Origin: a plasmid
Length of the DNA stretch: 64,000 nt
Assembly: GCF_054482525.1 (NCBI RefSeq)
Contig: NZ_JBTHVG010000004.1
Reading direction: 5' to 3' (one strand)
The translations under genes and the position numbers were made by a program. Below the pieces are notes generated by a model. It searched no databases. It was not told the DNA's origin and was given only the letters and a program-made list of their open reading frames with translations. Below are positions 17,253-64,000 of this stretch, piece after piece. Each line of letters begins with the position of its first letter. Position 1 is the stretch's first letter.

Positions 17253-17420
17253 AAGGATTGTTGCAGATACGAAAGTCGTTAGAATAGCCGCGGACGCTTG
17301 AGGCTGTATGCCGAAAGCGTTTTGTGGATGGTATACAGCAGAAAGCCCCCTGGAGATTTTTTATCAATCAACCAGGGGCTCTACTGTAATGCCTAGACAA
17401 CATTATAGTAGCCTGATAAT
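17253..17420 (+). repeat. partial duplicate of the pnd leader region (no toxin ORF)
   Basis: About 170 bp that matches 18672..18845 with roughly ten differences by eye, then diverges just before the position of the pndA start. Confidence 0.6.
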
Positions 17421-17461
17421 TTAGATATGTGTACATCCTACCGGAAAAGATACTTTTCAGG

Positions 17462-18671: not shown

Positions 18672-18864
18672 AAAAGGATTGTTACAGATACGAAAGTCGT
18701 TAGAATAGCTGCGGGCGCTTGAGGCTGTATGCCGAAAGCGTTTTGTGGACGGTATACAGCAGAAAGCCCCTGGAGATTTTTTTATCAATCAACCAAGGGC
18801 TCTACTGTAATGCCTCAACAACATTATAGTAGCCCGATAACCGCCGGAAGGCAATGGAGGGGCT
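18672..18864 (+). promoter_or_regulatory. pnd leader region (mok/pndC-like overlapping frame and probable antisense RNA pndB)
   Basis: Conserved leader directly upstream of pndA; in hok/sok-type loci this region carries the antisense RNA and the translational-coupling ORF. RNA ends were not mapped. Confidence 0.45.
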
Positions 18865-18867
18865 ATG

Positions 18868-19020
18868 ATGCCACAGCGAACGTTTTTAATGATGTTAATC
18901 GTCGTCTGTGTGACGATTCTGTGTTTTGTCTGGATGGTGAGGGATTCGCTTTGCGGACTCCGGCTCCAGCAGGGAAACACAGTGCTTGTGGCAACGTTAG
19001 CCTACGAAGTTAAACGTTAA
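18868..19020 (+). CDS. pndA: PndA, Hok-family type I toxin
   Basis: 50 aa hydrophobic peptide MPQRTFLMMLIVVCVTILCFVWMVRDSLCGLRLQQGNTVLVATLAYEVKR, typical of Hok/SrnB/PndA; not in the ORF track because it is under 60 aa. Confidence 0.8.
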   Translation: MPQRTFLMMLIVVCVTILCFVWMVRDSLCGLRLQQGNTVLVATLAYEVKR

Positions 19021-19343: not shown

Positions 19344-19495
19344 CGGATTTTCTCTCTGTATTTATGGGTAGTTATCGAACTGAATGTGCCAGTTTTTTCA
19401 GGAGACGGCAAAGTTGAGATGATTGGTTCTGATTCAAAGCATGAGTTTCCCCGGTGTGACGGGCATGTCGGGCGGATTTTGAGAAACAACAGATG

Positions 19496-19530
19496 TAAAA
19501 AAACCGACTGGTGAGGTCGGTTTTTTTACT
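19496..19530. terminator. bidirectional terminator-like hairpin
   Basis: aaaaaaaccgac tggtgag gtcggttttttt: stem flanked by an A-run and a T-run. Confidence 0.5.
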
Positions 19531-19540
19531 GTTCCGTTAC

Positions 19541-19771
19541 AGAGTGGGTGGCTCTGGTCGGAAAAGAACTGTCTATAACTGACTTGTAGATAGTACGTCT
19601 GGAATTATATTTCTGCAAGTACTGGATAAGTGTATACTCGGCATGTCAGCTCTGAGGCATGTTCTGTCCGACATATTGTTCAGCGGGAAGAACAGGTTGC
19701 AAGTCCTGGCCAAAACATCAGGTGGTGCTGGTTTTGGTGCTCTGGTCGGAGAAGAACTGTCTATAACTGAC
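19541..19771. repeat. two copies of a 33 bp direct repeat (GCTCTGGTCGGARAAGAACTGTCTATAACTGAC) about 200 bp apart
   Basis: Copies at about 19541..19573 and 19739..19771 differ at one position. Confidence 0.5.
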
Positions 19772-35081: not shown

Positions 35082-35425
35082 AGGTTGTAGTCCTTCCAGG
35101 GATCAATATTCCCCGGCAGCTTTTCATTCACCTTGTCCACGACCGCGTCGCAGACCTGGTTTTCCAGCTGCGACAGAATGTCGTCAAGGCTGGGGAACTG
35201 GGGGAGGTTTATGCTGATTTTTTTGATTCGTGACAGACAGGACTGCAGGGATGAGGAAACATCGTTTTCACGTTGTGACCATGCATCCGCAGCTGCACGT
35301 GCTCGCTCATATCCTGTATTACTACCGGCCTGTGCCGCGCTACCCGCACGACAGGTTGCAGCACTTGCCGTGGATGAAATCAGGATAAGGCCGAGCACGG
35401 CAACCAGAGACTTATGCATGTTCAT
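35078..35425 (-). CDS. traL: TraL lipoprotein
   Basis: 115 aa with signal peptide; operon position. Confidence 0.6.
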   Translation of the reverse strand: MNMHKSLVAVLGLILISSTASAATCRAGSAAQAGSNTGYERARAAADAWSQRENDVSSSLQSCLSRIKKISINLPQFPSLDDILSQLENQVCDAVVDKVNEKLPGNIDPWKDYNL

Positions 35426-35442
35426 ATGGCTTCCTTACCGGC

Positions 35443-38400
35443 TCATCGGCCGGGGCTGTGGGAGAGATCCTGATGCAGAGTTTTTTCCTGCCTGTCCTCC
35501 GGCTTTTGGCTGTTGGACCACTGCTGCCATGACTGCTCGAAGCCCAGGTTCCGGTACAACGCATCAGGTTGTTTTTCCGGCGTGTAGACAGCAGCAAAAA
35601 GCGGTTCTTCCCGGGTTTTCAGATGAAACTGCATAAGCTCCGGTGCAGGGCGATTCGTGCTGTCAGCATCGTGGTTTACCGCTTCACCATAACCTGCAAA
35701 GCGTAAACCTTTGTCGGTCAGCGCATTGATAACCAGCTGACTGTTGTCGGCTGATGGGGTGGCCAGTGCCGGATACAATGTGCCGTTCAGCCGGACCACA
35801 CCCTGCAGATGTTCATCGGCACTCTGGACAAGTAGCAGGTTGAGTTCACGCGTATCCTTATCCACTGATCCCAGAACAGGTGTCAGCTTGTCAGGGGCTG
35901 CGCTGGTTATTTCTGTTACCTGATTTGCGTTCTGTGGCGCGGAGACCGGATGTCGGTCTTCACCGATAAACAGATGTGAGCCGACGTTTTCTGGCATACG
36001 TAACGCTTTCATCTCTTCGGGCCACCCCTGGCTGATTTGCGCAGCCACTTTCATAAAGGTTTCGACCGGAATCGCCTGAATACGCTGACCTTTATCCGGA
36101 TTATCATGTGATACCGAGATCCCGTTGGTAACTGACTCCATGGACCACTTATTCCGGAAACGTGCTTTTTGCTCTCCCGGGAGGATGAATTGTTCGCGGT
36201 TCTGAAGTGTCAGTGTCACCACGTCACCTTTCTGATGGTTTTTGACCAGACTTTCCAGTTGTTCCCCCCAGTAGAGTTTGCTGCCACTGCGGTTTTTAAG
36301 CTCAACAAAGAAACTCTCTCCTTTGCCGGGTGCATATTCAGCACGACCAAAATTGTGCAGTACGGCAGTCACGCTCTCTCCCGGGCGAAGTTTTCCTGGT
36401 GGTTCTTCACCTTGTGCCGCATCTGCCGTTTTGCCAGGTTCAGCCGGTGATGATGCAGGGACGGTGCTGACGGTTGATGCTTCAGGGGCTACTGGGGACG
36501 CCGGGGATTGTGTGGCTTCTTTTTCCTGAACAGGGTCTGGGACTGCTGGTTGTTCAGGGGTATTCCGGTTAAGTTCCGGTGTTGGCTTATGGGTGACAAC
36601 AGTATCCTTACCGACAGCCATTTCCTTGCGTAATTTTTCGAGCGCCGCTCGCTGATCCGGGAATTTCATGCGCACTTTGATGTTGTGCTCGATGATCAAC
36701 TGCATCGCTTTTTGCTTAAAGGCATCACTGCCCGTCAGCTCAATGACACCACCATAAAAATCAGTGGCCACAGCAAGTGCAGCCAGAACACTGCGATCGT
36801 CATTGCTGGCACCGTTGACCATTTCCAGCCGGTTTACCCGGTCAATGAAGGCAGGTTTGCCATCCAGTTTGTACAGGACGGTTCTGTCTGCTCGTTCTTC
36901 ACCTTCCAGCGATTTAATGATTTCGTCCAGATTGAGCGATATCGGTGCATCAGGGCGTTCCGGGGCGTAGACAATACTGTCAGGTGCCGGTGTGGTCGTC
37001 GTGGTTTCCGGTGAGGGTGTGGGATCACTGTTCTCATGCGCCTGGGAATCCGTTTTTTTACGCGTAAAAAAGCCACGCGCTTTGTCGAGAAACGATGAAG
37101 TATTATCAGAAGATGATGTGCTCTGAACAGGTTGCTGTGGAGTGGGGTCATCCCGGACAGCCGGTTCTACTGTATCTGTTGTGGCCTGAAGTTCTGACTC
37201 ATCAGCCTGAACGTGGCCTGTGTCCGGTTGCGACGGCATATCACTGTTTTCCTGCAGATGCTCAGGATTTTCATTGTTCATCAGCTCCTGATATGTGCTG
37301 TAGTTTTCGTATTCTTCGGGGCCATCTGACTCAGGAAGGAACGGCTCTGGCTGAAGGGGAATGTCTTCAGTTACATGGTTGACCGCCTCTTCCCGGGGAG
37401 TATCCGGGGATATTCCGGTGCTTTGTTTGTCATCAGGCTCCGTCATCACGGTCATTTCCTCTTTGACTGCATCAGGGGAAGGTGATGGCTCGGCTGATTC
37501 ATTCATGGTTTCAGATGAGGGACTGTCTTCAGGGGATGCGGTGGTGGCAGCAGGGGCCGGTATTTCAGGTGAAGTGCCGGATTCCTGTTGTGACTCGTTT
37601 TTTTCCGGTTGTGACAGTTCAGCTTCAAATTCACGCCAGTCTTTATCTGTGGCCACCGAGACAACTTTTTCCGGAGGTTCCGCCGGATGAGCGGGTTCAT
37701 CAGGGGCAGACGCCGTTGTACTTTCCGGGGACGCCAGTGATTCTGCAGGGGAGTCCTGAACTACAGAGCTTTCCGTTTGCGCCTGAACGTTATCAGCGTG
37801 CCGCTCATCTTTGCCGTTATTTTCAGTGGCGTGACTGGTAAATGACTGTGTTTCATCAGCAATGTTACTGCTGGAAGCAGCTGGTTGTTCCTGCTGCGTG
37901 GCGGACGGCAGAGAAGGTCCCTGGTCATGGCTGTGCCCTGTATCGGGTGATGTTTCAGGATATTCTGTCGGAGTCATGGTTTTTTCCTCAGTGTGGACCG
38001 GTGTAAAAACGAGGTTGCCTATCACCAGTGCCTCGCGCATTTCCGGGGTGTTACTGTTGGGGGTGGAAACCCCGATGTGTTCTAACTGGGCGTTGATGAC
38101 ATGCTGAAAAGCGGCCCGTCCCCGGCTTGCGTCCAGGTCATTGAAATCGGTCAGCCCCTGCGCTTTTTCGGCATCGGTGAACGCAGGAAAGATGACCGAT
38201 CCTCCTGTCAGTTCTGCGGCTTTTGTTGCACTGACGATACCTTTGTTAACCCGGATTGCATGATCGTTGTCGGCACAGAAGATAAAGGGGCTTTGCGTCC
38301 ACTTTTGCCGGGCATTTTCGGCAACGGCAATCATGTTGCCTCCATCCACCGTCATCAGTACCGGAAGGCCCGTGGCTTCGTGCAGGGAGGCCGCAGTGGC

Positions 38401-42571: not shown

Positions 42572-42780
42572 AATAATTCCTGAGCAGTTAAATCAGAATG
42601 GGATATACCGGTGCTCCGGTACAGACAGGATGATGTTTGTTTCCGGCTATACTTGCGTTACCGGAAATAAATGCCAGTGTGGCCAGGTAAATAGCCTCAT
42701 AGTTTACTGAAGGTGATTATTCCTGATACTGGCTGGTTGATGTGTCGTCAGACATAAAACGAATATGAGCGTAATCTTTA

Positions 42781-42915
42781 ACGCTCCGCGCCGAATCGAT
42801 CCATGATGGATGACTCGACGATTTATGAATCGAACGTACCGGCGCTTGTCCCTGAAACAGTTCCCGGCCCTCGTCCGGATGACCTGCAATTCAGACAGGC
42901 ACATGTGCCCGTACA
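42781..42915 (-). promoter_or_regulatory. conserved tra-region element, copy 1 (mini-ORF MDRFGAER)
   Basis: Shares a 5' core AACGCTCCGCGCCGAA-CGATCCA and a 3' block (CTGCARTTCWGACRG) with copies at 62171..62300 and 63233..63365. Confidence 0.45.
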
Positions 42916-42965
42916 CTCTTGTATCTTACTGAGTATATCAGAATTTATGTAAATTCAAATATCCT

Positions 42966-43609: not shown

Positions 43610-44812
43610 TCAGAAAGTGAACTGAAGTTGTGCCATTGCACCGTAATCGTGGTCAGTTCCTACCAGGCCGGAAACATCGATATGTACGACGTCAAATGGA
43701 GAGATACCAACGCCAGCGGTGAAGGCGCTTCCGGAGTTTGATGCCATGTTCTGACGATAACCGGCACGCAATTGCGCCCATTTCCATGCGTTAAATTCAG
43801 CACCAACACTTGCAAACTGACGTTTGCTGTCAGAAGTGAAGCCACTGGCAGGAGTCAGATCAACGTCAAGAGCAGTGGTAAACAGGTCATTATGCCAGGA
43901 TACACCGGCGGTTGCCTGTGGACGAACTTTGAAGGTTTCTTTAAAGCCATTGACGACTTTAGTATCAATACTGCGTGGAATGATGTTCTGGGCAACAAGA
44001 CCGACAGTCCAGTTGTCATTCAGGTCTGTATAAGCACCAATATCGGCGTTGAATCCGTTTTTCGTGTTGTGGTACTTGTCACCGTCAAAATCGTCTTTGT
44101 CGTAATCACGAACCGTTACGTTGTAGTTAAACAGGTCCACACGCTGATATTTTGGTGTGACGCCAAGAGACCATTTTTGTCCGGCCGTTTCCAGTTCTTT
44201 GGCAAATGAAATTCCGACGTCGGTAATTACAGCTGCACGCCCGAATGCGCGTGAGGTCAGGGCATTCTTATCGACGTCGGTAATTGTTCCATTGGCAACT
44301 TTGTCCAGATAATCCAGGTCTGCATCGTTTACTTTTCCGTTTACGCTGACAGTTCCGTAAGACTTGACCATAAGGGCAAACGGCAGAGTGTCATTTGCCA
44401 TGGCTGCTACAGCTGATACACCTACCTGAGCATCTGCATTGATATTGCGGAATTCCTGCAGACGATGTTTAAGATTTGCCGCTGCCTGTTGTACGCCATG
44501 CTGGTTATCTACAGCACTGTCAAACAAATCCCAGTCATCTTTAACATCATCAGCTTTATTTGATACATCATCAGGATCAGCAACTTGTGCCCCAACAGAC
44601 GGCAGAAGAAGGCTGAAATCATCATTGCTGTTGTGCTTTGTCAGTAAAGCCGGGTTTGCCAGAGGTGCCACACCATAATGGGAAGATGCTACCCCGGTGC
44701 CACCCATTGCATCGTTACGCGCTTCAAAATATGACGTTGCTGCTGCAGCGTTAAAGGAAAATAATACAGCAGATGCAATGATGGTGCGGGTAATATGATT
44801 TTTCTTCATCAT
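43610..44812 (-). CDS. traF: TraF outer-membrane beta-barrel protein
   Basis: 400 aa, signal peptide, C-terminal aromatic residue (…QLQFTF) typical of beta-barrel OMPs. Confidence 0.65.
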   Translation of the reverse strand: MMKKNHITRTIIASAVLFSFNAAAATSYFEARNDAMGGTGVASSHYGVAPLANPALLTKHNSNDDFSLLLPSVGAQVADPDDVSNKADDVKDDWDLFDSAVDNQHGVQQAAANLKHRLQEFRNINADAQVGVSAVAAMANDTLPFALMVKSYGTVSVNGKVNDADLDYLDKVANGTITDVDKNALTSRAFGRAAVITDVGISFAKELETAGQKWSLGVTPKYQRVDLFNYNVTVRDYDKDDFDGDKYHNTKNGFNADIGAYTDLNDNWTVGLVAQNIIPRSIDTKVVNGFKETFKVRPQATAGVSWHNDLFTTALDVDLTPASGFTSDSKRQFASVGAEFNAWKWAQLRAGYRQNMASNSGSAFTAGVGISPFDVVHIDVSGLVGTDHDYGAMAQLQFTF

Positions 44813-45872: not shown

Positions 45873-47027
45873 TTACAGCGGGGTGCTGCCCGGGTTCAGA
45901 GGGCAAATCATAATGTAGTCAGGGTCGTTAACAGGTAACGCTCCGGGAGATGGGACACGTTCGCCTTTCTGTGCTGCAATGGCCAGTGTACGCAACAAAA
46001 CCTCACTGGCGCGGTGAACTGCTTCCTCTTTCGTTGTGGCAGTGACGTGAAGGTTATCAAAATCACCGATCTCAATACGATGCGCTTTCTGCCCATTTTC
46101 TTCATCGATGGTCGTGATATGGGCAGGATACGGCACAAACCATGCTGCCACTTTTTGTGTCTGCCGCCGGCGGGCATCAAGCTTACTGACCAGTTGCCAT
46201 GCACGAAGATGAGTATACCGTTTCAGCATATTCATGGAACGATGTCCTGATATTGCAGCAATCTCCATTACATTCAGGCTACCCAGTTCGAAGAAGCGGC
46301 TTATTGCTTCATGCCGTAGATCGTGAAAATGCAGGTCCTCGATGCGAAGTCGTTGTGTGGCTATTCTCCAGGCATTTTTAAAGCCGGATGCGGTGTAATC
46401 AAAAACATTGCCGTGGAGATTAACGGGCATCATCTGAAGAAAGTTACGGGCACGTCTGGACAGAGGAACATCCCGTGAGTGACCGTTTTTGGTTTCAGGT
46501 AAATGAGCCACACCGTGGCGCAAATCAATGTGTTCCCAACGTAAGGCCAGTATTTCGCCCTGCCGCATGGCTGTTTCAAGGGCAAGATGGAAAATGACAT
46601 ACAACATCAGATTTTTTTCGCGGAAATAGCGAGAAAGGCGACGTTCTTCTGAAGACGTTAGCCGACGATCTCGTCCGGAGGATACTTTCGGCTTGCGAAC
46701 CAGTTCAACCGGGTTAGTACGACAGGTTCCCCATTCAACACGAGCAATATTGAACAGAGATGACAGAAGGGCGAGTTCAAGACGTACAGTATTACCTGTA
46801 ATGGCTTTACCCGTTCGGGGGTTGATTTCTGCTAAACGAACGTCTCTGTATGTAGCAATATCAACGGTTGTTATTTCGTCCATATTCCGAAGGGCAATGG
46901 GATATCGCTTGATAACATTGCTCCGGTAAAACTCCTGTTGATGCCCTTTCTTGTGAACAGAAACTGTTTTCAGGTACTTATCCAGTGCGCGTGACAGGGA
47001 CATTTTACGGATGCGTGGAGACGGCAT
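45873..47027 (-). CDS. rci: Rci shufflon-specific tyrosine recombinase
   Basis: 384 aa from the internal Met ([20 protein letters not shown]...); integrase-family catalytic residues (R...HDLRH...Y); adjacent to sfx repeats. Confidence 0.9.
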
Positions 47028-60692: not shown

Positions 60693-61376
60693 TCAGTGTA
60701 ATGTGATAGTCGTCTGCTCCTGTGTTGCACCCCAGACATCTTCTGGCAAGCTGGGCAGCCCGATAAATAGGGTGTGAAAGAGGGTTTCTCTGCGTTCGAT
60801 CCCGAATTGATGTTCGTATCCTCTCACCACCTGAAATCCTTCGTCGGAGAATATTAACTCTGCCGTTTCCAGAAGCTGCATAGTTTTGCGGTGTAGTGGA
60901 GTGATCAGCTGCAACGTAACTGGTGCCCTCATATCGCCTGTCGGTAGAAAACACTCTTCGGTGCGACTTAGTTGTAGCAGATGGCGTTTCCCGGAACAGG
61001 CCCGTTCAATGGATTCATTGAACACCCTCTCAGGCCATGGGCAGACATAAGTGCGCCAGCCTGCTTTCTGTAATTTACCCAGCGCAGCCCGAAAACGAAA
61101 CAACGGACATTCCCCGACAGTGGCAGAGCTGAGAAAGAGCGTATTCAGCGTTCCGATGATGGGAATATTGCGATCTTTTTCGGTCAATGCTTTTAACGCC
61201 ATGATTTCGCCAGGGAGACTACTGAACTCAGGATGTCTGCTGGCACCAGAAAGCCATTCAAGCAGGTAATGCCGTAATCCGGTTTCACTGGTTATATTGT
61301 GGTTTTCCTGTGCCGTTTTCAGGGCATTCAGTGCACACCAGAGCAACTGGCGCACGGGATGTTCTGTCGTGGTCAT
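60693..61376 (-). CDS. pilI: first gene of the pil operon (pilI by position, 227 aa)
   Basis: Clean ORF upstream of the pil block; naming by order only. Confidence 0.45.
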   Translation of the reverse strand: MTTTEHPVRQLLWCALNALKTAQENHNITSETGLRHYLLEWLSGASRHPEFSSLPGEIMALKALTEKDRNIPIIGTLNTLFLSSATVGECPLFRFRAALGKLQKAGWRTYVCPWPERVFNESIERACSGKRHLLQLSRTEECFLPTGDMRAPVTLQLITPLHRKTMQLLETAELIFSDEGFQVVRGYEHQFGIERRETLFHTLFIGLPSLPEDVWGATQEQTTITLH

Positions 61377-61588: not shown

Positions 61589-61625
61589 TGAATTGAAAAA
61601 AGCCCGGCCCGAAGGCCGGGAAATA
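61589..61625 (-). terminator. rho-independent terminator downstream of the NusG-like gene
   Basis: Minus-strand read: cccggccttcgggccgggc followed by ttttttc. Confidence 0.6.
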
Positions 61626-61629
61626 CTGG

Positions 61630-62163
61630 CTATGGGATGTTTACAAGGCGCTCCATAAAGCCGTGATGTTCGGCATTTGATACCAGTTCCAGGAGCAGGG
61701 ATATCCTCGACTCAGGCTGGAGAGTATTTTCCATTCTGAGGAGATACTGATATTGTGCTTTTGTCAGCCATATGCTGGAAGCCGCATTCAGCTCTTCCCT
61801 GGCTCCCGGATTTAGCACAGGGTCCGGGTAAATCTTCATTAATCCATCAACAATATCTTTATTGACGGGTTTTATTTCACCGCCAAACTTCACGAAATCA
61901 ATGAAGGCGCTATGGCGACGTAATGCCGATACTGGTTGAATGTCAAAATTAGCCAGAATAAAAAAGTACCCTGGAAAAATAGCGAATATTCTTTCACGGT
62001 AACAGCACCTGGAGTCTGCCCGTCTTATCTTTCTTGTTATTAATGGAGTCCATGGTACGACGTTTTGCTCATTCAGCCATGAGAATAAAGATTCTCTGTT
62101 TTTGCCGGCTGTATTATATTGCGCAAGATACCAGTTCCGGTTATTCAGGTGTTCTATATTCAC
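61630..62163 (-). CDS. NusG/RfaH-family transcription antiterminator paralog (tra regulator; TraC-like by position)
   Basis: N-terminal NGN-like region (NWYLAQYN...FPGYFFILANFD) comparable to RfaH; no ATG at the N-terminus; likely GTG start at 62163 five nt after the mini-ORF stop. Confidence 0.6.
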   Translation of the reverse strand: MNIEHLNNRNWYLAQYNTAGKNRESLFSWLNEQNVVPWTPLITRKIRRADSRCCYRERIFAIFPGYFFILANFDIQPVSALRRHSAFIDFVKFGGEIKPVNKDIVDGLMKIYPDPVLNPGAREELNAASSIWLTKAQYQYLLRMENTLQPESRISLLLELVSNAEHHGFMERLVNIP

Positions 62164-62170
62164 GAAGTTC

Positions 62171-62300
62171 AACGCTCCGCGCAAAACCGATCCATGATGG
62201 ACGATTTTGCGATGTCAGGCGAATATGCTAAATCATATGTCTGAAGCAGTGTCCAGCCCATATCTGGATAAACTGCAGTTCTGACAGGCATATAACCAGC
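62171..62300 (-). promoter_or_regulatory. conserved tra-region element, copy 2 (mini-ORF MDRFCAER ends 5 nt before the NusG-like start)
   Basis: Same 5' core and 3' block as copies 1 and 3. Confidence 0.5.
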
Positions 62301-62604
62301 AGACTCTAGTACGTTCTGTATCGGTGATTTGGCGAACTCACAGATAAAGAACGGCTAAGCACTAATATCAGCAATACAGTGGCACAGTATTGTGATACGC
62401 GAAATAAAACATCAGCACGTCAGTTCAGAGTAAGGTCGCCATATATCGGGCATGAGCCAGATACAAATAATTGGGACACCGTCTGAAGTGATTTGCTTTA
62501 TTAAAGTAACTTGTGCTTGGTGTTTATGTTTATCAATTTGGGATCGCCTGTAAAGTGCAAAATGCAATTTCCATGAAAGTGTCCCCTTTAATGGGGACAC
62601 CTGT

Positions 62605-62913
62605 TCACATTTTTTCGTTTTCTTTAGCTGTATTGCTAATCATGAAAACGAACGTTCGCATCAGCACAGCAGAGCGAAGTGCATCATATCCTTCCAGATT
62701 TAAGTTCTTCAGGCTTCGCTTCAGGTAGGTTCGTACCGTTTCGGGAGAAAGCCGACAGTTCTGAGCAATGGCGTCGTAAGGAACACCCATTGCGTAAAAA
62801 ACGCAGACTTTAAGCTGGTTTGTTGATAGCTCGGGAAACATGCCTTCCAACAGAGTGATGGCCGGGAGTTTCTGTATCAGTTGAGGTGACATAGCAAAGG
62901 TCTCCGATGACAA
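62605..62913 (-). CDS. LuxR/FixJ-type HTH transcriptional regulator (TraB-like by position)
   Basis: 102 aa with C-terminal HTH (LSPETVRTYLKRSLKNL). Confidence 0.6.
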   Translation of the reverse strand: MSSETFAMSPQLIQKLPAITLLEGMFPELSTNQLKVCVFYAMGVPYDAIAQNCRLSPETVRTYLKRSLKNLNLEGYDALRSAVLMRTFVFMISNTAKENEKM

Positions 62914-63232
62914 CTAAAAACGCTATCACTGAGTTCCTACGCTCATTGGTGATAGCCCAGACGGGGGTAGGAATACCGGCGTCATCGGAAACCGGCCAGG
63001 CTAATGCCTGCCCCGCCTGAGCTACCATAGATGACGACAAGAAATACAAGTTCCTGTCTTTATGGTATGGCAAAAAACGACGCCAAATGAAGAAATTAAC
63101 TTCTGCGCCGACGATGACTACGCGGGTTCCTACGCCCGATCACAGTTTTGCCTGTGACCAGTAAAGGGTACTTAGTATAACGCACCGAGTCAACTAACAG
63201 CTTAAAAAACATACAAAAAAGCGTCAAAACTT

Positions 63233-63365
63233 AACGCTCCGCGCCGAAGCGATCCAGGCGTGATGCTTCTGCTTTGTGGCGTTCGAACATGCTGGTCCAT
63301 ATGCACGAAACGGTGTCTGACCCTCGTCCAGACAATCCGCAGTTCTGACGAACATATGAACAAAT
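63233..63365 (-). promoter_or_regulatory. conserved tra-region element, copy 3
   Basis: Same 5' core (AACGCTCCGCGCCGAAGCGATCCA) and 3' block (CCGCAGTTCTGACGAACATAT); mini-ORF frame is preserved but begins with CTG. Confidence 0.45.
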
Positions 63366-63446
63366 ATGCTCTTGTAGAGGCTGTTGTTACACAATTGGCG
63401 GGTTGTGTAACAAATGGTTTTATCATCTAAGAATTATTCTATTTAC

Positions 63447-63712: not shown

Positions 63713-63888
63713 TTCAAATTAACGTAAAGCGGGTATATTTCGGCTGTTATTAGCTGTGCAGAGGGTGGCACTCTGTGGAGCAAAGCGGCGAAAGTCGGAC
63801 GGCAGAATGCGCCATAAGGCATTCAGGAGAGATGGCATGTACGGGCAGTAAGTCAGAAGACTGAAGATGTTCCGGAAGCCATAAAAGG

Positions 63889-63950
63889 AAAACCCCCACT
63901 ATCTTTCTTACGAACTTGGCGGAACGACGAAAGATAGTGGGGGCCTCACA
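63889..63950. other. long perfect hairpin (15 bp stem, about 24 nt loop)
   Basis: CCCCCACTATCTTTC ... GAAAGATAGTGGGGG. Confidence 0.5.
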
Positions 63951-64000
63951 GAATACGGGTAAAGTATAATGAAACCGTACCAGAGATTCAACCCTGTGCA

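Follow-up and report, generated by a model that had tools for sequence, protein, structure and literature searches.

What precedes the traB gene of an IncI1-type conjugative plasmid is not a conserved leader peptide but the 3' end of a leader of ~165 nt that is conserved and folded. The gene was analysed in a window of 64,000 nucleotides (the whole stretch of DNA under study, to which all coordinates refer) from a plasmid contig, NZ_JBTHVG010000004.1 of NCBI RefSeq assembly GCF_054482525.1, where it lies together with traA, traC and the region called Hft. Based on the evidence described below, it is tentatively proposed, with more doubt than confidence, that the leader is a new recruitment signal for TraB (together with TraC) and the master elongation switch of conjugation in the IncI complex, and that Hft is a C4-type RNA throttling the TraA input. 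The coordinates of all features are listed in Table 1.

Copies and structure of the traB leader

The preliminary description, which was made from the letters of this DNA alone, had pointed to a triplicated element as a candidate site for the recruitment of a specialised antiterminator. The element was located at 42777-42822, 62168-62213 and 63230-63275 (three matches compared with 0.01 expected by chance), and at each place it forms part of a longer leader module of ~165 nt, of which 20 copies were detected in 15 lineages using nhmmer and a covariance model. One copy always ended 3-12 nt 5' of the traB start, also in the lineages lacking traA; a second copy was found 5' of traA where traA exists in IncI1-like lineages; and a third one, between traG and traH, was found in the window only. 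No copies beyond these three were present in the window, and a whole IncK2/Z plasmid carried the traB copy only.

On the sense strand the fold of the leader has three elements, namely an extended irregular arm (S1-S2-S3-P3), the hairpin P4, and P5, which is a GC mini-hairpin. Seven helices (S1, S2, S3, P3, the two parts of P4, and P5) were drawn on a plain MAFFT alignment of 18 copies, which was not fitted to the structure, and the structure was derived from the same sequences on which it was then scored. Standard pairs were formed in 88.2% of the cells, compared with 33-43% when the partners were slid by 1-3 columns, and changes on both sides were observed in 22 of the 38 pairs (6-13 in the slid controls), giving a covariation score of 0.374 compared with 0.07-0.11. 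None of 500 shuffles matched the observed percentage of paired cells, the counts of both-side changes or the covariation score; further standard pair types were matched by 10 of the 500. Compensatory changes thus exceeded those in the controls, which is the mark of a structured cis-regulatory RNA. The fold was assigned to the sense strand because G-U pairs were frequent, and the minimum free energy (MFE) structure calculated by RNAfold for a single IncI1 traB leader reproduced the drawn helices. The module had no match in Rfam 15.

The core of P5, GCG(G/A)AGC, was invariant. In the traB leader it reads GCGGAGC and, compared by eye, differs by one loop base from the hairpin GCGGTAGC of the ops element (GGCGGTAGnnTG) of RfaH. 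The DNA sequence d(GCGNAGC) forms an unusually stable mini-hairpin. A scan of the contigs with GGATCNNTTNNGCGCGNAGCG was swamped by chance matches in high-GC genomes, and its only real match was in L027 (Citrobacter). A promoter-like sequence was noticed by eye near the start of each leader copy. Just 5' of leader copy 3 there is also a perfect 11-bp inverted repeat, TTGTTACACAA-N8-TTGTGTAACAA, at 63384..63413, which recurs 5' of an orphan leader copy in L011; overlying the likely traA promoter, it is a possible candidate operator.

Identity and start codon of traB

The mechanical open reading frame (ORF) at 61630..62184 (minus strand) comprises 184 codons from a TTG, with a GTG as codon 8 at 62163 and the first internal methionine only at about residue 116. 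The 1.9-kb traA-traB stretch was found by megablast at >=99% identity in 1388 PLSDB plasmids, nearly all of which are conjugative MPF_I/MOBP plasmids from Escherichia and Salmonella, and in which one ORF is annotated as 'NusG family protein' (or TraB) and the other as 'conjugal transfer protein TraA', with TraC and then PilI and further genes coming next. The window was 99.3% identical to R64 over 1871 nt, and the R64 record has the same genes. Likewise, the gene order repZ - Hft - traA - traB - traC - pilI is that of IncI1 plasmids, with the IncI replicon adjoining (PK-repZ at 63885). Based on this near-identity and the traA-traB-traC-pil synteny, ORF 61630..62163 is traB of an IncI1-type conjugative plasmid. 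R64, pESBL-EA11 and pESI have the same traA-traB-traC genes at >=99% identity with no difference in the proteins, so the gene pair is already known, with published roles of a NusG-like, essential TraB and a LuxR-like, non-essential TraA, and alone adds nothing new.

It had been suggested that the N-terminus of the protein is NGN-like and has no ATG near it, and a profile search was named as the possible refutation. This search was run, and the protein came out NusG-like. TraB matched the Pfam NusG NGN family (PF02357) with 22.2 bits, exactly the gathering score, and the TIGR01955 RfaH model over residues 18-174 with an E value of 8.6e-11; its 42.1 bits in TIGR01955 did not reach the equivalog cut-off of 144.5, nor did its 36.8 bits in the RfaH equivalog NF006534 reach the cut-off of 124. 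When a family profile of 13 homologues (53-92% identity) was compared with solved structures, the best match was PrfaH of IncX3 (9ik0, E 2.5e-11), and Escherichia coli RfaH (E 6e-5, residues 9-167) and NusG chains were also matched. The AlphaFold model of TraB had a mean predicted local distance difference test score (pLDDT) of 69.7, with values of 75-89 in the NGN domain and a helical C-terminal third of low confidence (50-58). Its best Foldseek matches were RfaH-ops (5OND), PrfaH (9IK0) and autoinhibited RfaH on RNA polymerase, with E values of 1e-8 to 1e-10, and its NGN part could be superposed on 8pen_P with a root-mean-square deviation of 2.0 Å. No Pfam KOW match was obtained for TraB, and residues 120-167 aligned to the C-terminal domain of RfaH with the conserved KOW glycines replaced. 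TraB is an RfaH-like paralogue and not an RfaH orthologue; its likeness to NusG or PrfaH has been published (PMC5013300, PMC11880322).

The DNA upstream of traB was compared among diverged lineages, which comprised IncK2/Z, pOP-I, pATCC10720, Yersinia kristensenii (one contig) and several contigs of metagenomic or assembly origin. At the position of GTG 62163, the homologous codon was GTG in four lineages, TTG in one and ATG in at least nine. From this codon all TraB homologues begin with M-(N/D/K/T)-I, and the 13 in the protein alignment with M-(N/D)-I. The true start of traB is GTG 62163, as the preliminary description had expected, and a TraB of 177 aa starting at this GTG is already annotated by the Prokaryotic Genome Annotation Pipeline (PGAP), both here and in R64. 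The seven extra codons of the mechanical ORF belong to hairpins P4 and P5. In L013 (IncK2/Z, NZ_CP071713.1), PGAP gives at 46002-46643 a TraB of 213 aa with an ATG start inside leader helix S2, since no stop interrupts this frame of the leader there by chance; the homologous start is a TTG at L003:838. The TraB proteins P0009 (217 aa) and P0025 (195 aa) look likewise over-extended.

Terminators and hairpins around the leader copies

An intrinsic terminator lies directly 3' of traB, between traB and traC, and a GC hairpin followed by a T-run was found at the same position in 10 further lineages, with differing stem sequences. Leader copies 3 and 1 each run into a hairpin that reuses the 3' half of their own P5, followed by a strong T-run in copy 3 and by a weak one in copy 1. 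Between traA and the traB leader there is another GC-rich hairpin followed by TTT only, which was seen by eye and not flagged by the terminator scan; a role in weak termination or as an RNA-stability element is possible.

The Hft region, a proposed C4-type antisense RNA

Published as pESBL 35394-35663, the Hft region corresponds to positions 62915-63184 of the window, and it contains a strong match to the C4 antisense RNA family (Table 1). The targets of this RNA were mapped by exact complements, since full-length RNAduplex predictions of C4 against its targets were uninformative. The loop sequence UCCGAUGAC of the C4 RNA exactly complements GUCAUCGGA (62911-62903), which overlaps the GGAG of traA, and UUCCUAC complements GUAGGAA at 62940-62934; both boxes are repeated upstream as a1 and b1, so that the loops have exact complements of 7-9 nt on both sides. 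The Rfam c4-a1b1 and isrK matches to the upstream hairpin pair were below the gathering score, which the isrK match exceeds in pOP-I. A C4 RNA is likewise found ahead of the LuxR-type gene in L137, L136, pOP-I and L010, and in the last two the loops have changed jointly with their boxes (CCGUGUAG/CUACACGG and CACGUAA/UUACGUG). Judged from these complements, Hft would be a C4-type antisense RNA predicted to mask the traA ribosome-binding site.

The c4-icd-ant mechanism of the phage P1/P7 immI region was reportedly worked out by Citron and Schuster in 1990. The immI region (RF01695, RF03163) resembles Hft in having a C4 RNA, upstream a1/b1 and downstream a2/b2 boxes, with a2 covering the ribosome-binding site of the next gene downstream; the controlled gene, however, is a phage antirepressor there and the plasmid conjugation activator traA here. 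It has been reported that insertions in Hft raise traA::lacZ ~50-fold (PMC5801416), which would be explained by the C4 arrangement. Compared with the window, R64-drd11 differs at 63021, which lies in the C4 stem, and at 62931/62930, in the interval from b2 to a2, these three positions being the candidates for X1 and X2; it also carries the traA R59stop at 62718, which is X3 of Poidevin 2018. The changes fit de-repression through C4. No paper connecting C4 with Hft was found in the literature, which was incompletely covered. Other Rfam matches in the window were the PK-repZ pseudoknot with a CopA-like Inc RNA of the IncI replicon (63885-64000), two sok antitoxin RNAs (17292-17449 and 18713-18870), all on the plus strand, and an AgrB antisense RNA on the minus strand (19495-19582).

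traA and traC

The small LuxR-type protein named in the preliminary description is TraA. Its mechanical ORF (62605..62913, minus strand) counts 102 codons when read from a TTG, and an ATG lies at 62892. A C-terminal-type helix-turn-helix was matched by Sigma70_r4_2 (25.7 bits, equal to the gathering score), and the GerE match (21.4 bits) stayed below its gathering score of 23.5; the TraA homologue of pOP-I is named LuxR C-terminal-related by PGAP. For TraC, searches of Pfam, NCBIfam and PDB sequences gave weak DUF2913 matches only. Its AlphaFold model is confident (pLDDT 86) and combines an N-terminal domain of helices with a C-terminal domain of alpha/beta type; Foldseek found no fold match for it in the PDB (template modelling score <=0.3).

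It has been reported that traB and traC are essential for transfer and traA is dispensable (PMC4288162, and Kim 1993 as cited there), and that over-produced TraA raises transfer and traB::lacZ via a 54-bp upstream region (PMC5801416). In pESI, deletion of traA slightly raises transfer, and deletion of traB abolishes it and lowers the pil transcripts (PMC5013300). Between repA and traB, traA is missing in five lineages (IncK2/Z, L006, L007, L009 and L011), and a traC homologue was found 3' of traB in 13 of 14 lineages. Therefore, the supposed activator pair of the NusG paralogue and the LuxR-type protein, which is right insofar as traA boosts traB, is better read as a cascade from TraA to traB, with TraB-TraC as the constant unit: traA is dispensable and missing in the five lineages, and the constant partner is traC.

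Relation to known elongation factors

Among solved structures the best sequence match of TraB is PrfaH, which is also plasmid-borne and encoded by the first gene of a transfer operon. PrfaH recognises a hairpin formed by the non-template strand at -42 to -25 relative to prfaH itself, and it reportedly helps polymerase to pass a downstream termination signal (PMC11880322). This target, which maps to L138:1457-1474, is a small GC-stem hairpin in the 5' untranslated region of prfaH at the same relative place as P4/P5 of IncI, and a termination signal follows it. In contrast, the identity between the two proteins is ~33% and confined to the NGN domain, the two leaders are not detectably homologous, and the IncI leader is ~165 nt long with long-range helices and IncI has an obligatory partner, TraC. 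Escherichia coli RfaH shares the NGN fold, and its C-terminal segment aligns over the full length with that of TraB, which is predicted to be helical. RfaH differs from TraB in the family scores and KOW glycines given above and in its ops-reading residues, and no canonical ops is present in the window.

LoaP, a NusG paralogue of Bacillus (Goodson in 2017 and Elghondakly in 2021), reportedly needs a structured 5'-leader RNA hairpin 5' of intrinsic terminators. TraB resembles it as a specialised NusG paralogue with a structured 5' leader element and intrinsic terminators downstream, and scored 17.5 bits in the NCBIfam LoaP model with a cut-off of 125. Neither the folded leader nor the post-traB terminator nor the C4 reading of Hft was found in the papers on traA-traB-traC of R64, pESBL-EA11 and pESI (PMC4288162, PMC5801416, PMC5013300). 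The leader appears to be undescribed, and no earlier description linking IncI plasmids with antitermination, C4 or antisense RNA was found in a literature search of incomplete coverage.

A proposed elongation switch

The model that we favour, and to which we give an even chance, is that TraB loads on the polymerase at the leader and then suppresses terminators, which goes beyond the existence of the structure and the terminators. TraB, probably with TraC, would engage RNA polymerase as the leader is transcribed, with P4/P5 read either as a non-template-DNA hairpin, like ops by RfaH and the target in its own 5' untranslated region by PrfaH, or as RNA; the candidate pause or recruitment sequence is GCGGAGCGTT. 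The polymerase would thereby become resistant to the post-traB terminator, giving a self-reinforcing switch into traC-pil, and the two additional leader copies of IncI1 would bring the terminator-like hairpins ahead of traA and ahead of traH under the same control. As an optional upstream input, traA would act by activating traB transcription (as published), and its translation would be held down by the C4-type antisense RNA from Hft. To regard the triplicated element as a candidate recruitment site was reasonable on sequence grounds, given a covarying leader with an ops-like terminal hairpin and terminators following it.

Several observations weigh against this model. We infer the link between TraB and the leader from anatomy alone (leader, gene and terminator). 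A modest folding-energy z-score was obtained (-2.16; 6 of 200 shuffles folded equally well), close pairs among the 18 aligned copies reduce the effective sample to ~10, and the structure was drawn from the sequences used to score it. Promoter positions were assigned by eye, and a consensus scan flagged none at the leaders. Nearest-neighbour DNA energies of P5, ops and the PrfaH site did not single out P5, and even ops was not predicted to be stable. The leader covariance model found no match in the IncX3 prfaH leader. In IncK2/Z a single leader copy serves a co-directional array of ~43 kb, and the family can therefore do without the extra IncI1 copies. The residues with which RfaH reads ops have reportedly also been described by Zuber in 2018. 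Those listed for RfaH, K10, H20, R23 and R73 (PMC11880322), are replaced in the hidden Markov model alignment of TraB by T18, W29, E32 and S85, of which W29 and S85 (aligned to H20 and R73) are family-invariant.

The main alternative, which we consider possible at a lower probability, is that the leader is a cis-acting RNA setting traB translation or mRNA stability, by sequestration of the Shine-Dalgarno sequence or start, as a thermosensor or as a target of a small RNA, and that the extra copies are duplicated promoter-leader cassettes. The Shine-Dalgarno GGAG is within P5, and in the IncI1 MFE fold an alternative hairpin pairs CGCGGA with UUCGUG, GTG included, so that the 3' end of the leader could be purely a translational operator; moreover, only the copy that abuts the start of traB is universal, and conjugation of pESI is temperature-dependent (PMC5013300). 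However, leader copies 1 and 3 lead into terminator-like hairpins with no start codon following, the spacing from Shine-Dalgarno sequence to start varies from 4 to 12 nt, and the start-pairing hairpin is confined to the IncI1 lineage.

It is unlikely that the module acts as a double-stranded DNA operator or promoter-proximal site for TraA or TraC, with TraB acting elsewhere. The requirement of TraA for the 54-bp region, which lies 5' of the predicted traB promoters, to raise traB::lacZ (PMC5801416) and the promoter-like sequences near the start of each copy would agree with such a site, but the compensatory changes and many G-U pairs indicate a single-stranded, sense-specific structure, and the module is also present in lineages without traA.

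The preliminary description had instead regarded a mini-ORF just ahead of the GTG as conserved, and had implied translational coupling, in which ribosomes finishing this mini-ORF translate traB from the GTG and the coupling sets TraB synthesis. We find this quite improbable. The 40-codon ORF does stop 5 nt ahead of the GTG here, and in the three IncI1 copies its last eight codons (MDRF-G/C-AER-stop) look conserved, with differences mostly at third positions. The conserved peptide MDRFGAER-stop which these copies suggested was dropped after alignment of the diverged lineages: in 6 of 10 lineages GGG or CTG stands in place of the ATG of 'MDRF..', at least five lineages have lost the stop, in IncK2/Z and pATCC10720 the frame is broken by 1-nt indels, and the IncI1 traH leader copy has in-frame TGA and TAA codons. 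The presence of the ATG at 62291 is explained by the covarying helix S2, in which a palindromic CATATG containing this ATG is paired with another CATATG, and no Shine-Dalgarno sequence was found 5' of either mini-ORF ATG. What is conserved across lineages is the nucleotide string GGATCGnTTnnGCGCG(G/A)AGCGTT together with ~140 nt 5' of it. The mini-ORF is not conserved as a coding sequence in start, frame or stop, and therefore conserved translational coupling is unlikely.

Finally, it is very improbable that host RfaH serves the tra genes as elongation factor by way of an ops in the tra promoter region of IncI1 and that TraB has another role: rfaH was reported to be needed for cefotaxime induction of traF in IncI1, with an ops element stated (Liu et al. 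2019; PMC6768964), but ops matches with at most one mismatch numbered two in the window (2.7 expected), both with one mismatch and neither in a tra leader, the rfaH effects may be indirect via lipopolysaccharide, and traB is itself essential (PMC4288162). The only ops-like 12-mer near tra genes, GGCGGTTGCCTG (one mismatch) at 43907-43918 on the plus strand, is antisense within traF and at chance level.

Table 1 Leader copies, genes, hairpins and antisense RNA elements in the window
Feature	Coordinates	Strand	Description	Evidence
Leader copy 1	42773..42938	-	In the traG-traH interval, heading the essential tra operon	
Leader copy 2 (traB leader)	62164..62323	-	Helices S1, S2, S3, P3, P4, P5	nhmmer, covariance model, covariation, MFE fold
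Leader copy 3	63226..63392	-	5' of Hft and traA	
P4 hairpin of traB leader	62184..62207	-	AAATC-GTCC-loop-GGAT-C-GGTTT	
P5 mini-hairpin	62172..62182	-	GCGC-GGA-GCGT; GGAG Shine-Dalgarno at 62175-62178, 11 nt 5' of GTG	
traB coding sequence	61630..62163	-	177 aa, GTG start, RfaH-like NusG paralogue	Profiles, fold, homologues, annotation
Seven extra codons of mechanical ORF	62164..62184	-	From TTG; outside the protein, within hairpins P4 and P5	
40-codon mini-ORF	62169..62291	-	Stop 5 nt 5' of GTG; ATG in leader helix S2	
Intrinsic terminator 3' of traB	61597..61620	-	CCCGGCC-TTCG-GGCCGGG then T6; stem 61620-61603; between traB and traC	
Terminator-like hairpin and T-run	63218..63240	-	Reuses 3' half of copy 3 P5; strong T-run	
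Hairpin GAGCGT-N8-ACGCTC	42767..42786	-	Reuses 3' half of copy 1 P5; weak T-run follows	
GC-rich hairpin	62579..62600	-	GTGTCCCC-ATTAAA-GGGGACAC; just 3' of traA stop, then TTT only	By eye; terminator scan silent
C4-type antisense RNA	62945..63032	-		Rfam RF01695, 77.5 bits (gathering score 45)
Box b2	62934-62940	-	GTAGGAA; C4 target	
Box a2	62903-62911	-	GTCATCGGA; overlaps traA Shine-Dalgarno GGAG at 62902-62905	
Boxes b1 (63127-63133) and a1 (63112-63118)	63073..63171	-	c4-a1b1/isrK-like hairpin pair, terminator-like stem and T-run	
traA	62605..62892	-	95 aa, ATG start at 62892; small LuxR/sigma-r4-type helix-turn-helix protein	
traC	60693..61376	-	227 aa; essential co-regulator, distant DUF2913 relative	

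Implications for IncI plasmid transfer

IncI1 and other I-complex plasmids are major carriers of extended-spectrum beta-lactamase (ESBL) genes and of AmpC genes. What has so far been known about the activation of their transfer genes is genetic only: traB and traC cannot be dispensed with, traA contributes, and insertions in Hft give 'superspreaders'. The gene pair and the GTG start of traB were known, and the leader and the C4 reading of Hft look undescribed. Together, the leader, the post-traB terminator and the C4 RNA bear on where TraB is recruited, on why traC-pil depends on traB and on what Hft is, and they point to single-nucleotide routes to de-repressed transfer.

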